Source of the DNA: Promethearchaeota archaeon
GTDB taxonomy: Archaea; Asgardarchaeota; Lokiarchaeia; Sigyniarchaeales; SOKP01
Length of the DNA: 46,501 bases
NCBI GenBank assembly: GCA_048938445.1
Contig: JBHLME010000019.1
Coordinates: 1-46,501 of the forward strand
Direction of reading: 5' to 3'
In this document: positions 44,328 through 46,308 of the stretch, one piece after another
How the letters are laid out: the number at the start of each line of letters is the position of its first letter
Numbering within the stretch: position 1 is the first letter of the stretch
Program-made: the position numbers and the translations under genes
Notes under the pieces: model-generated
Database searches by the model: none
What the model was told of the DNA's origin: nothing
Seen by the model: the letters and a program-made list of their open reading frames with translations, nothing else

Positions 44328-45323
44328 ATGAATGAAATAAAATGGGGAATTTTAGGATGTGGAAAGATTGCACGTTTGTTTGCTGAAAGCTTAAAAGAAC
44401 TCCCCGATGCAAAATTAGAAGCAATTTCTTCTCGAACTGAAGGAATAGCTGAAAAATTTGGAACACAATATAAGGTTAAAAAGAGATATACAACTTATGA
44501 AGAATTAGCGAGTGACCCAGATATTGATGTCATATATATTGCTACTACTCATAATTTTCATTATGAAAATGCTTTATTATGTTTAAATTATGAAAAAGCT
44601 GTACTATGTGAAAAAGCTTTTACTGTAAATGCTCCTCAAGCTGAAATATTAATTAATACTGCTCGGAAAAAACGAGTATTCTTAATGGAGGCCATGTGGA
44701 CAAGATTTATCCCTTGTATGAAAAAATTAAAGGATATACTTGACGAAGAACGATTAGGAGATGTTCACTACGTGAAAGCGGATTATGGAAGGAATACTAA
44801 AGTTGCCAATTCACACCGACTATTTAATCTGGAATTGGCGGGGGGTGCATTATTAGATCTTGGGATATATCCCATTTCGCTTGCATCTATGATTTATAAA
44901 AGAGCACCAATGAGAATTACAAGTAGTGCAACTATAGGAGAAACTGGTGTTGATGATAGCTCCTTTTATTTCTTTGAATATGATAGAAAGGAGACAGCAT
45001 TCCTCTCTTCTTCCCTTAAAATAAATATACCTAATACAGCTCACATTTTTGGAACAAAAGGATATGTCCAAATATTCGATTTTGTCCATCCTACAAAAAT
45101 GATGCTAAAACTTGAAAGGAATCGCAAAAAAGAGATTAAAATTCCTTATAAATCTTTTGGATATAATTATGAAGCAAGAGAAGTAATGGATTGCTTGAAA
45201 GATGGAAAACTTGAGAGTGAAGTTATGCCGTTAGATGAAACCCTACAAATAATGAAAACTATGGATGAATTAAGATCTCAATGGAATTTAAAATATAAAG
45301 GAGATTATATTAATTCTATATAA
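44328..45323 (+). CDS. Gfo/Idh/MocA-family oxidoreductase
   Basis: WGILGCGKIA, YIAT, CEKAF, MEAMWTRF, GGALLDLGIY. Confidence 0.95.
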   Translation: MNEIKWGILGCGKIARLFAESLKELPDAKLEAISSRTEGIAEKFGTQYKVKKRYTTYEELASDPDIDVIYIATTHNFHYENALLCLNYEKAVLCEKAFTVNAPQAEILINTARKKRVFLMEAMWTRFIPCMKKLKDILDEERLGDVHYVKADYGRNTKVANSHRLFNLELAGGALLDLGIYPISLASMIYKRAPMRITSSATIGETGVDDSSFYFFEYDRKETAFLSSSLKINIPNTAHIFGTKGYVQIFDFVHPTKMMLKLERNRKKEIKIPYKSFGYNYEAREVMDCLKDGKLESEVMPLDETLQIMKTMDELRSQWNLKYKGDYINSI

Positions 45324-46090
45324 GAAATGAGTCCTAATTCATCAATTTTTTTAAGTATTTTATATATTTCTTCAATTGGTAAATTCATTTTATGTGCTAT
45401 GTCTTCGGAGGTATTAAAACCATTAAATAAATGTGCTATTTTATATTGAAGTTGTGTAAGAAGTCCCTGAGAAATTGATTGCTCAGGGAGCCTTATATCT
45501 TTATTCCAAGATTTTTTTCCATCATTATCTTTAACTTTCTTATAGATCTCTTCCTTTAATTGAATCTTCTTTAGATTTTTCAATCCAAATAACTTCAAAA
45601 AAGATTTTTTATATATTTTAAATATTGGAATATTATTTTTAACAACTCCAATTTGTCCATCTTTTAGTAAATCCCTTATAACCATATTAAAATCTTTAAA
45701 TTTAATAAGTCTTCCATCCCAGCCGATTAATTCACCTTTACTGTTGTATCTCTTAACAAATTTTGATTGTAAATTACTTAAACCATGATAAATAATCATT
45801 TTATCATCTGTTTTGTCTGCAACTCCGATTACGATCACATCATTTTGAACGATCAGGAATAAATTATATATCTCCATGTCTTTAATCAAATAAGCAGATA
45901 TTACTTATTTTATAATCTTTAAATCTCCTGATCCCATACTCATTTCTTTCCCAATGTTTTTAAATGCTACAACATAACCACTGATTAAATCTGAATCGAA
46001 ATCAACCTCAGTCTCAGAAAATCTTTCTGAAACTAAGCACACTCCGGAAATTTGGTGAACTATATATACTACATGAAGAATTTTAATCAC
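45305..46090 (-). CDS. Longin-like domain plus C-terminal wHTH protein, interrupted by a 30-nt insert (spliced gene or pseudogene; 251 aa if the insert is removed)
   Basis: ORFs 45905-46090 and 45305-45889 are in one frame separated by one TAA. ILHVVYIVHQISGVCL...DSDLISGYVVAFKNIGKEM...GDLKII/DMEIYNLF fits the longin-like pattern; C-terminal FNGFNTSEDIA...LKKIDELGLI is wHTH-like. Confidence 0.7.
45882..45911 (-). other. Candidate 30-nt archaeal-type (relaxed BHB) mRNA intron, or mini-insertion footprint
   Basis: GAUU AU^A AAAUAAGUA AUAUC UGCUUAUUU GAUU AA^A; contains the TAA; removal restores K-I-I-D-M. Confidence 0.5.
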
Positions 46091-46308
46091 TTATGATTTT
46101 TTTTTTTTATTTCTAATTATAATTTTAAAAAAGTAATTAAAAAATTTTAATTCAATCGGTTAAGAAATTATTTTGTAAAATTTAAAATTTATTCACAGAC
46201 AACTGTGTATAGTAATTATTTTTTATCCTCAAGATATTGCAATATGATATTAAAAATCGGACTCCTTAAGATTATTAAAAGCTTACAGATTTGTAAATTT
46301 TGATTAAC

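Follow-up and report, generated by a model that had tools for sequence, protein, structure and literature searches.

The window analyzed here is the whole of a 46,501-nt stretch of DNA from a Promethearchaeota archaeon (GCA_048938445.1, contig JBHLME010000019.1, positions 1-46,501; genome designated G000). Near its end, on the minus strand, lies a longin-type gene that is broken solely by one TAA, and this stop codon falls within a 30-nt segment, 45882-45911, that is very probably a bulge-helix-bulge (BHB) mRNA intron of the relaxed HBh' class in a gene for a longin plus winged-helix protein. Such an intron, in an Asgard host, had been proposed in a preliminary description made from the DNA letters; the host assignment agrees with the records of the relatives, which are titled Promethearchaeota. 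The gene and the RNA elements are listed below, from the gene down to its parts. Clade A denotes the gene and its orthologs, of which seven sequences, the window's included, carry the insert.

45305-46090, minus strand: longin-type gene, with one TAA as its sole break
45905-46090, minus strand: upstream open reading frame (ORF) of 61 codons with a GTG start
45305-45889, minus strand: downstream ORF of 194 codons, in the same frame as the 61-codon ORF
45912-46090, minus strand: exon 1, starting at the GTG (46090-46088) and ending two bases into the second Ile codon of DLKII
45882-45911, minus strand: predicted 30-nt intron, carrying the in-frame TAA at 45905-45907
45305-45881, minus strand: exon 2, from the third base of the Ile codon through D-M-E... 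to the TAA at 45305-45307
45926-45933, minus strand: distal exon-exon helix, 5' strand GAUCAGGA (codons G-S-G), in exact 8-bp pairing
45914-45917, minus strand: central helix (H), 5' strand GAUU in exon 1, pairing with 45884-45887
45911-45913, minus strand: 5' bulge AUA, with the predicted cut between 45912 and 45911; invariant in seven of seven clade-A inserts
45888-45910, minus strand: intron hairpin (h'), with a 9-bp stem (45910-45902 with 45896-45888) and the loop AUAUC (45901-45897)
45884-45887, minus strand: central helix, 3' strand GAUU, the last paired intron bases, pairing with 45914-45917
45881-45883, minus strand: 3' bulge AAA (AGA in L097), with the predicted cut between 45882 and 45881
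45851-45858, minus strand: distal exon-exon helix, 3' strand UCCUGAUC (codons F-L-I), unchanged even at synonymous positions in seven of seven intron-bearing sequences

The preliminary description had stated that the two ORF pieces share a frame and are separated by nothing except a stop, and ORF reading of the minus strand bears this out: the only block between the 61- and 194-codon ORFs is the TAA within KIIK*VISAYLIKDM. Read 5' to 3', the RNA runs GAUU (45917-45914), AUA (45913-45911), AAAUAAGUA (45910-45902), AUAUC (45901-45897), UGCUUAUUU (45896-45888), GAUU (45887-45884), AAA (45883-45881), and GAC. As the HBh' motif is defined in the available text of PMC5829648 and 10.64898/2026.10.13.758758, the central helix joins four exon bases upstream of the 5' bulge to four intron bases upstream of the 3' bulge; the bulges of a BHB are 3 nt long, and at least one flanking helix has at least 2 bp. 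At the window's site, GAUU pairs with GAUU in four of four positions (G.U, A-U, U-A, U.G), as a BHB central helix requires, and h', which begins directly 3' of the 5' bulge, has nine pairs, including one U.G, where at least two are required. The two 3-nt bulges lie on opposite strands, the 3' triplet being bounded by a helix on one side only, and cuts within them restore the ortholog protein. Base-level inspection found the hairpin, the GAUU/GAUU helix, the flanking triplets, and the perfect 8-bp exon-exon helix to be as first described, and the accompanying caveat of a weak central helix and a noncontiguous exon-side helix holds. Because the exon-side helix (h) beside the 3' bulge is absent, we assign the motif to the HBh' class and not to the strict hBHBh' class.

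The predicted intron begins with the last base of the 5' bulge, runs through the 23-nt hairpin and the 3' strand of H, and ends two bases into the 3' bulge. Its excision would yield the sequence GDLKII-DMEIY and a continuous 251-residue protein. As judged from a structure model of the intron-less ortholog P0002 (mean predicted local distance difference test score, 76.6), exon 1 encodes the first part of a longin-like domain (strand-strand-helix-strand 3), and exon 2 encodes the rest of that domain, a linker, and a C-terminal winged-helix-like domain with weak Pfam matches to TrmB and HTH_NPRL3. The elements of the P0002 model (E7-12, E18-23, H33-50, E57-61, E65-72, E75-82, H87-106) follow the longin topology, strand-strand-helix-strand-strand-strand-helix, and the site of the intron lies where strand 3 ends, between I60 and D61. 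The best Foldseek matches of the model are to the N-terminal domain of Sec22b (template modeling score on the target, 0.72) and to the longin domain of VAMP7, and it also aligns over long stretches with chains of GATOR1 complex entries; these structural matches agree with the weak Pfam Longin and HTH_NPRL3 matches. Because the Pfam Longin (PF13774) match, at 19.6 to 19.8 bits, lies under the gathering cutoff of 26.2, the product is longin-like by its modeled fold and stands outside the curated Longin family, in keeping with the earlier term "longin-like." An Rfam search of 45600-46200 returned nothing relevant, its sole match being a chance one to mir-553 (E value, 0.45).

Conservation in orthologs and in a paralogous clade

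A search of a protein collection with the read-through gene gave 13 matches. Three of them, P0002 (251 aa), P0003, and P0007, are full length and show a gap of exactly the insert's 10 codons (GDLKVI-DMD), and this indel coincides with the segment, stop included, that had been predicted to be removed by cutting after the second base of each bulge. Eight of the 13, among them the window's own P0001, are 190-aa C-terminal pieces that start at the Met after the insert, which suggests an interruption in those genes as well. For nine orthologs, DNA was taken from metagenome contigs in records other than the window's. A 30-nt, TAA-bearing insert occupies the same site in six of these loci (L091, L092, L093, L094, L097, and L098; 58 to 74% amino acid identity), and the remaining three (L095, L096, and L099) are without it and have the exact 10-codon gap; a sense-codon loop was found at the site in none of the orthologs compared.

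Pairing within clade A was scored on A3, an ungapped alignment of all seven sequences with the insert. Every one of the 28 central-helix cells is paired, and L091 has GAUC on both strands, by which both G.U pairs become G-C. The hairpin h' is paired in 95.2% of cells and has two pairs changed on both sides (columns 36/44, with C-G, U-A, and U.G, and columns 30/50, with A-U and U-A). The distal helix is paired in 94.6%, with changes only to G.U, and its three broken cells all belong to L098, because an extra codon shifts this sequence in the ungapped alignment; on its 3' side, UUC CUG AUC is invariant at synonymous positions. When the 3' partners were slid by 1 to 3 columns, pairing fell from 96% to 26 to 50%. 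The ratio of nonsynonymous to synonymous substitution rates (dN/dS), computed for 10 pairs among five intron-bearing clade-A genes, is 0.08 to 0.30 in exon 1 and 0.16 to 0.42 in exon 2. Both exons are, by this sequence measure, under purifying selection, and the values argue that both pieces encode protein and that the gene is not decaying.

The checks that could be run among those set out in the preliminary description came out on the side of an intron. Orthologs show either the exact 10-codon absence or a stop-bearing insert, and the pairing is kept by compensatory and wobble changes. With up to 3 mismatches allowed, the window's genome holds no second copy of the 23-nt hairpin; since the hairpin is unique, the insert is not a miniature inverted-repeat transposable element (MITE) or the end of an insertion sequence (IS). 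Contigs from other studies' runs cover or bridge the insert gap-free, and it is for this reason not an assembly artifact.

A second clade of the gene family is far larger (clade B; ~38 to 40% identity, GSGELKVIDMQ...). The read-through query was matched in 39 of 41 related genomes, mostly by a near-full-length clade-B copy, and the window's genome holds an intact paralog at C28:52232-52957 (+). An insert is present at the site in 22 distinct sequences, 7 of clade A and 15 of clade B, and absent from 111 of the 133 distinct C-terminal sequences. The clade-B insert is 29 or 30 nt long, is cut 2 nt further 3' in the coding sequence than that of clade A, and parses, with ^ marking a cut, as UUAU, AG^R, an 8- to 10-bp hairpin, [GA]UA[AG], and AN^A, which is the architecture of the window's insert. 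A joint alignment of the two clades (A2) was discarded as a basis for scoring: MAFFT followed exon homology, leaving the intron types offset by 2 nt, and the clades were therefore analyzed separately (A3 and A4). In A4, with 15 clade-B sequences, H is paired in 60 of 60 cells, 6 of 10 h' pairs are changed on both sides, and the covariation score is 0.344 versus 0.182 in shuffles, with 0 of 500 shuffles reaching 0.344; RNAalifold finds the hairpin unaided.

In some of these sister inserts the stop is TAG or TGA, and others are frame-shifting; those of L084 and L085, at 29 nt, would change the frame if unspliced. The clade-B cut AG^R ... AN^A always rebuilds an Asp codon (G + AC/AU). This Asp is present in every insert-less row, and 7 of the 15 clade-B sequences, read unspliced, have no GAY codon before the ATG. 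Read-through, restart, and bypass cannot explain an insert that shifts the frame and that, once removed, rebuilds the Asp codon of the family.

On a FastTree tree of 133 distinct exon-2 proteins, which has weak support at many nodes and does not tell gain from loss, the A-type intron occurs only in clade A (7 of 10 rows) and the B-type only in clade B (15 of 123 rows), and the pattern of presence and absence takes at least 14 state changes, frequently between close sisters. Compared by eye on A2, clade-A and clade-B introns are no more alike than expected for AT-rich sequence. A single intron may have shifted by 2 nt, or the two types may have been gained separately.

Two further features of A4 are recorded as side observations. 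Just 3' of the intron, columns 62-78 (exon 2, codons Q-I/V-F-Y-L) form a small hairpin, GCAGAU...AUCUGU, in which Gln and Leu codons covary (two pairs changed on both sides, 86.7% paired) and which is also present in some intron-less genes. Covariation is also seen between column 21, just 5' of H, and column 59, just 3' of the 3' bulge (G-C in 11 sequences, A-U in 3, G.U in 1). These two bases would make a one-pair exon helix h; the three A-U sequences may belong to a single lineage.

Weighing the proposed intron against its alternatives

Several points weigh against an intron at this site. The 93-nt unit has a minimum free energy (MFE) z score of -1.59, and 12 of 200 shuffles fold equally well. 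With settings of 4/4 central pairs, 3-nt bulges, a hairpin stem of at least 9, a loop of 3 to 9, and a length of 24 to 40, the same architecture is found 619 times in the genome (G+C content, 29.6%) versus 460 times after local shuffling (9.25 million positions). The central helix of the window is weak, with two G.U and two A-U pairs. The strict hBHBh' motif calls for an exon-side helix h of at least 2 bp, and at the corresponding place, beside H and the 3' bulge, an A stands opposite a G. The only closure of the unit is the distal 8-bp helix, which occurs in the intron-less L099 and is missing from the intron-less L095 and L096; because L099 keeps it, it is not tied to the intron. Covariation within clade A is thin, with two pairs in seven related sequences; the observed values are reached in 50 of 500 shuffles, a control weakened by the small number of sequences. 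All seven clade-A inserts are 30 nt long and in frame, and each has an internal TTG or ATG. Finally, cleavage, ligation, and any regulatory use are inferred from sequence comparison.

Because the fold energy is unremarkable and the architecture is common in an AT-rich genome, the motif on its own is no evidence; its significance lies in the exact match of its boundaries to the ortholog indel and in its conservation. Thermodynamic evidence was dropped, the MFE fold favoring an alternative exon 1-exon 2 pairing that, by eye, is unconserved in another ortholog. The distal 8-bp helix may hold the exons together, standing in for the missing h.

The alternative that survives best, and which we regard as unlikely, is a split gene, in which a 61-aa piece and a piece of ~190 aa, restarting at the TTG or ATG of the insert or at the following ATG, assemble one longin fold, and the hairpin serves translational coupling or mRNA stability. 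It would account for the 190-aa piece called for 8 of the 13 database matches, for the TTG (ATG in L094) inside every clade-A insert and the ATG after the insert in six of seven, and equally for purifying selection on both pieces; for clade A taken alone, the logic of the frame admits it, because the inserts are 30 nt, in frame, and furnished with an internal TTG or ATG. However, L098 has ATA where the ATG follows the insert elsewhere, the break would come where strand 3 of the sheet ends, and changes in the insert preserve RNA pairs rather than residues. The conserved BHB geometry likewise disfavors two separate products, and the same architecture and cut rule recur in clade B, where the 29-nt forms and the rebuilt Asp need RNA joining, as well as in rtcB (29 nt) and a Ras gene (31 nt), where both inserts are frame-shifting.

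Less probable again is translational bypassing of the T4 gene 60 type, with take-off before the TAA, skipping of the hairpin, and landing on a matching codon before GAC. In gene 60, too, a stop beside a hairpin interrupts an otherwise continuous frame; in the window, the stop stands directly after a potential take-off codon, within the 5' arm of the hairpin, and matching codons are available in five of seven clade-A sequences (AAA...AAA in the window, L091, and L093; AUU...AUU in L094 and L097). Yet L092 and L098 pair AAG with AAA, and the product of bypassing would be 1 or 2 residues longer than all intron-less orthologs, whereas excision gives exactly the ortholog length. Product length, frame-shifting sister inserts, and conserved BHB geometry speak against bypassing, which offers no route to the Asp in 7 of 15 clade-B sequences and no role for the 4-bp helix and the two triplets, which are fully conserved.

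A decaying gene, inactivated by a 30-bp insertion that is either the footprint of a mobile element, with its GATTA target duplication, or a product of replication slippage, is very improbable. The GATTATA/GATTAAA flanks do resemble a target-site duplication around a 23-bp inverted repeat, and the genome holds the intact paralog on C28. But the insert is common to seven sequences that differ at 26 to 42% of residues, the flanking frames are open with dN/dS of 0.08 to 0.42, no other copy of the hairpin exists in the genome, and the apparent duplication is what the central helix requires and covaries as such (GAUC/GAUC in L091). Stop read-through or recoding, in which TAA would be decoded as a residue and the insert would add a loop of 10 residues, is scarcely credible: seven of seven clade-A inserts keep the frame, with a length divisible by three, but TAA also terminates this gene and its neighbors, sister inserts have TAG, TGA, or a frame shift, and what is conserved in the insert is RNA pairs and not residues as protein.

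We thus return to the BHB mRNA intron, for which the conserved stop-bearing insert, the kept pairing, and the exact indel argue strongly. In the transcript, the exon GAUU would pair with the last four paired intron bases, GAUU; the AUA bulge would part this central helix from the 9-bp intron hairpin, and the AAA stretch would follow the helix on the other strand. The two-subunit splicing endonuclease (EndA) of the genome would cut after the second base of each triplet (between 45912 and 45911 and between 45882 and 45881), and RtcB would join the exons and probably circularize the 30-mer. The joined message would encode the continuous 251-residue protein, of the same length as in intron-less orthologs. 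The intron itself is probably without a function of its own beyond being tolerated, and it appears to be one of a population of 29- to 31-nt mini-introns in protein genes of the Loki group.

Splicing enzymes and further inserts

Two ORFs of the tRNA_int_endo family were found in the window's genome, one on C26 (202 aa; best PDB match 3p1z_B, E value of 1.8e-35) and one on C80 (204 aa; best solved relative 1a79_A). By eye, the C26 product keeps a Tyr/His/Lys pattern that may be the catalytic one, and the C80 product is without the His. RtcB is encoded at C28:53254-54561 (+). The genome therefore has both a splicing endonuclease and an RNA ligase, the broad specificity of the former being taken from PMC5829648, which in its available text describes Asgard EndA as an (alpha-beta)2 enzyme with a loop that confers broad specificity; the two paralogs fit that type. 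In the accessible part of the census of Asgard tRNA introns (10.64898/2026.10.13.758758), two EndA paralogs are reported in 44 of 60 genomes, and HBh' is counted among the canonical classes. As a side observation, ARAGORN lists 44 tRNA genes in the window's genome, 15 of them with an intron; some are doubtful (a 1634-nt "intron," a tRNA-Stop).

The clade-B paralog was also observed directly upstream of rtcB on the same strand (C28:52232-52957, then C28:53254-54561; loci L004-L170). In a tblastn search with the genome's RtcB, 118 of 168 fetched loci had a match, usually 230 to 300 nt after the longin gene; the window's clade-A copy is not beside rtcB. The adjacency of the clade-B gene to rtcB suggests a functional link between the longin plus winged-helix family and the ligase, and the family may work with or regulate this RNA ligase.

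A single rule, by which each of the two 3-nt bulges beside a 4-bp helix is cut after its second base, yields an intact protein in every case that could be parsed: clade A (7 sequences), clade B (15), rtcB (5 loci), the Ras gene of the window's genome, and N-terminal inserts of L050 and L087. The genes with such predicted introns include the longin family, at three or four positions, a Ras-type GTPase, and rtcB. The inserts outside the main site of the longin family are as follows.

L004:3033-3061, L066:2637-2665, and L103:1519-1547: 29-nt insert in rtcB, at the same site also in L084 and L145
C15:5103-5133, minus strand (locus L174/L185): 31-nt insert in a Ras-family GTPase gene
L050, ~1529-1558: 30-nt insert near the N terminus of a clade-B gene, between QY/QH and TG
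L087 (= L007), ~1493-1523: 31-nt insert near the N terminus of a clade-B gene, between QY/QH and TG

The rtcB insert is frame-shifting, follows residue 69 (GGVGY^DINCG), and occurs in 5 of the 118 loci with an rtcB match. It is a full hBHBh' motif, in which H is UUGG/CCAA, the bulges are AU^A and AA^A, the hairpin has 9 bp, and the exon helix h has 2 bp; the message for the ligase would need the ligase. The inserts of L050 and L087 parse with h CC/GG, H in 3 of 4 pairs, UA^A, a 10- to 11-bp hairpin, and AA^C, and their H helices differ by a compensatory change from U-A to C-G. A 35-nt N-terminal insert in L129 (~1183-1217), within TG^IC, gave no BHB parse under the same rule. L129 was also seen to share its site-1 intron sequence with L041.

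The Ras-gene insert has a perfect H, GCAC/GUGC; its hairpin has 9 bp, and its bulges are AA^C and AG^A. Its length is frame-shifting, and it splits the gene between GT and NIV, with Pfam Ras positions 1-33 and 45-158 on either side. Ras orthologs (L188, L189, and others) read GTNIV, the insert being absent from their DNA, and copies 95 to 96% identical in G002 and G004 have open frames of 195 to 196 aa versus 144 aa in the window's genome. Because the insert is absent from the orthologs, these near-identical copies included, it looks like a recent intron gain on the evidence of the sequences.

The Ras case came from a blind scan of the window's genome, as had been recommended in the preliminary description, for H, bulge, hairpin, H, and bulge whose removal joins two open frames. 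The scan also recovered the window's site (on C83). It gave 334 matches with a loose filter and 48 with a stricter one, mostly at gene boundaries or in wrong frames, and C83 and C15 were the only validated cases. Among the matches set aside, C187 is a continuous PHO4 ORF and C26 an atpA/atpB-like junction; C172, C31, C182, C141, and C124 are intergenic, and the exons of C7, C38, and C111 are unconvincing. A separate observation is a 23-nt candidate insert at C145:17346-17368 (+) (locus L181), AAUG CA^U ... UGUU UC^A, which sits in the third PAS domain of a PAS-histidine kinase between frames of 342 and 267 codons.

Relation to known systems and implications

Introns of the endonuclease type in archaeal protein genes are textbook rarities, and the standard case is cbf5 of Crenarchaeota. 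The cbf5 intron is reportedly also the subject of work by Watanabe in 2002 and by Yoshinari in 2006. In the available text of Yokobori 2009 (PMC2738675), the intron of crenarchaeal cbf5 pre-mRNA is described as having an unconventional BHB, a hetero-oligomeric EndA, and lineage-specific loss. Our case resembles it as a BHB-like intron in an archaeal protein gene, of patchy presence, that gene callers misannotate, and the phase of the cbf5 intron as given there, between the first and second bases of an Asp codon, is that of the clade-B sister intron. Measured against the same portion of the source, the host gene differs (longin plus winged helix versus pseudouridine synthase), as do the phylum (Promethearchaeota of the Asgard group versus Thermoproteota) and the number of intron positions, several being used here in one gene family; splicing of cbf5 was shown experimentally, whereas here it is inferred.

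Compared with the HBh' introns of TACK and Asgard tRNAs, as far as these are covered in the accessible parts of the two sources that define the motif, the motif definition is the same, the enzymes are expected to be the same, and the size range is similar. Unlike those introns, however, the window's intron has an mRNA host, with no tRNA body to supply the exon helix, for which the distal 8-bp helix may substitute. It shares with the Loki-group rtcB intron a 4-bp H, a ~9-bp hairpin, the bulges AUA and AAA, and a similar size (29 nt in rtcB); the H of rtcB is strong and accompanied by a 2-bp h, whereas that of the window is G.U-rich and h is absent. Nonspliceosomal excision of a short mRNA intron by a protein endonuclease is also known from HAC1/XBP1 of eukaryotes, where RtcB joins the exons in metazoa. 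That system differs in that Ire1 acts on paired stem-loops under stress regulation, versus EndA on a BHB.

A full-text literature search, whose coverage left most subscription journals outside, turned up no account of endonuclease-type introns in protein genes of Asgard archaea, and the claim to novelty depends solely on that search. The mechanism is known from cbf5; the Asgard longin-gene example is well supported by comparison, with splicing as its presumed outcome. A conserved, covarying case in an Asgard archaeon, with sister introns in a paralog, a GTPase, and rtcB, suggests that the phenomenon is broader than annotated. The introns cause systematic misannotation, as in the eight relatives recorded as 190-aa fragments. 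Since the enzymes and a 93-nt substrate are defined, the intron is experimentally tractable.

A wider proposal, which we put forward tentatively and hold to be possible but rather doubtful, is that Loki-group Asgards routinely carry tRNA-type mini-introns of 29 to 31 nt in protein genes, often gained and lost, that mRNA splicing by EndA and RtcB is an ordinary layer of their gene expression, and that the longin plus winged-helix family is possibly tied to the ligase. If the family regulates the ligase, an intron in its own message would couple its production to splicing capacity. The introns are not spliceosomal, and nothing in the analysis links them to eukaryotic introns; they are relevant to the question of how intervening sequences are tolerated within protein genes of the lineage closest to eukaryotes. 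If the wider proposal is true, mRNA splicing by EndA and RtcB would be routine in the closest prokaryotic relatives of eukaryotes.

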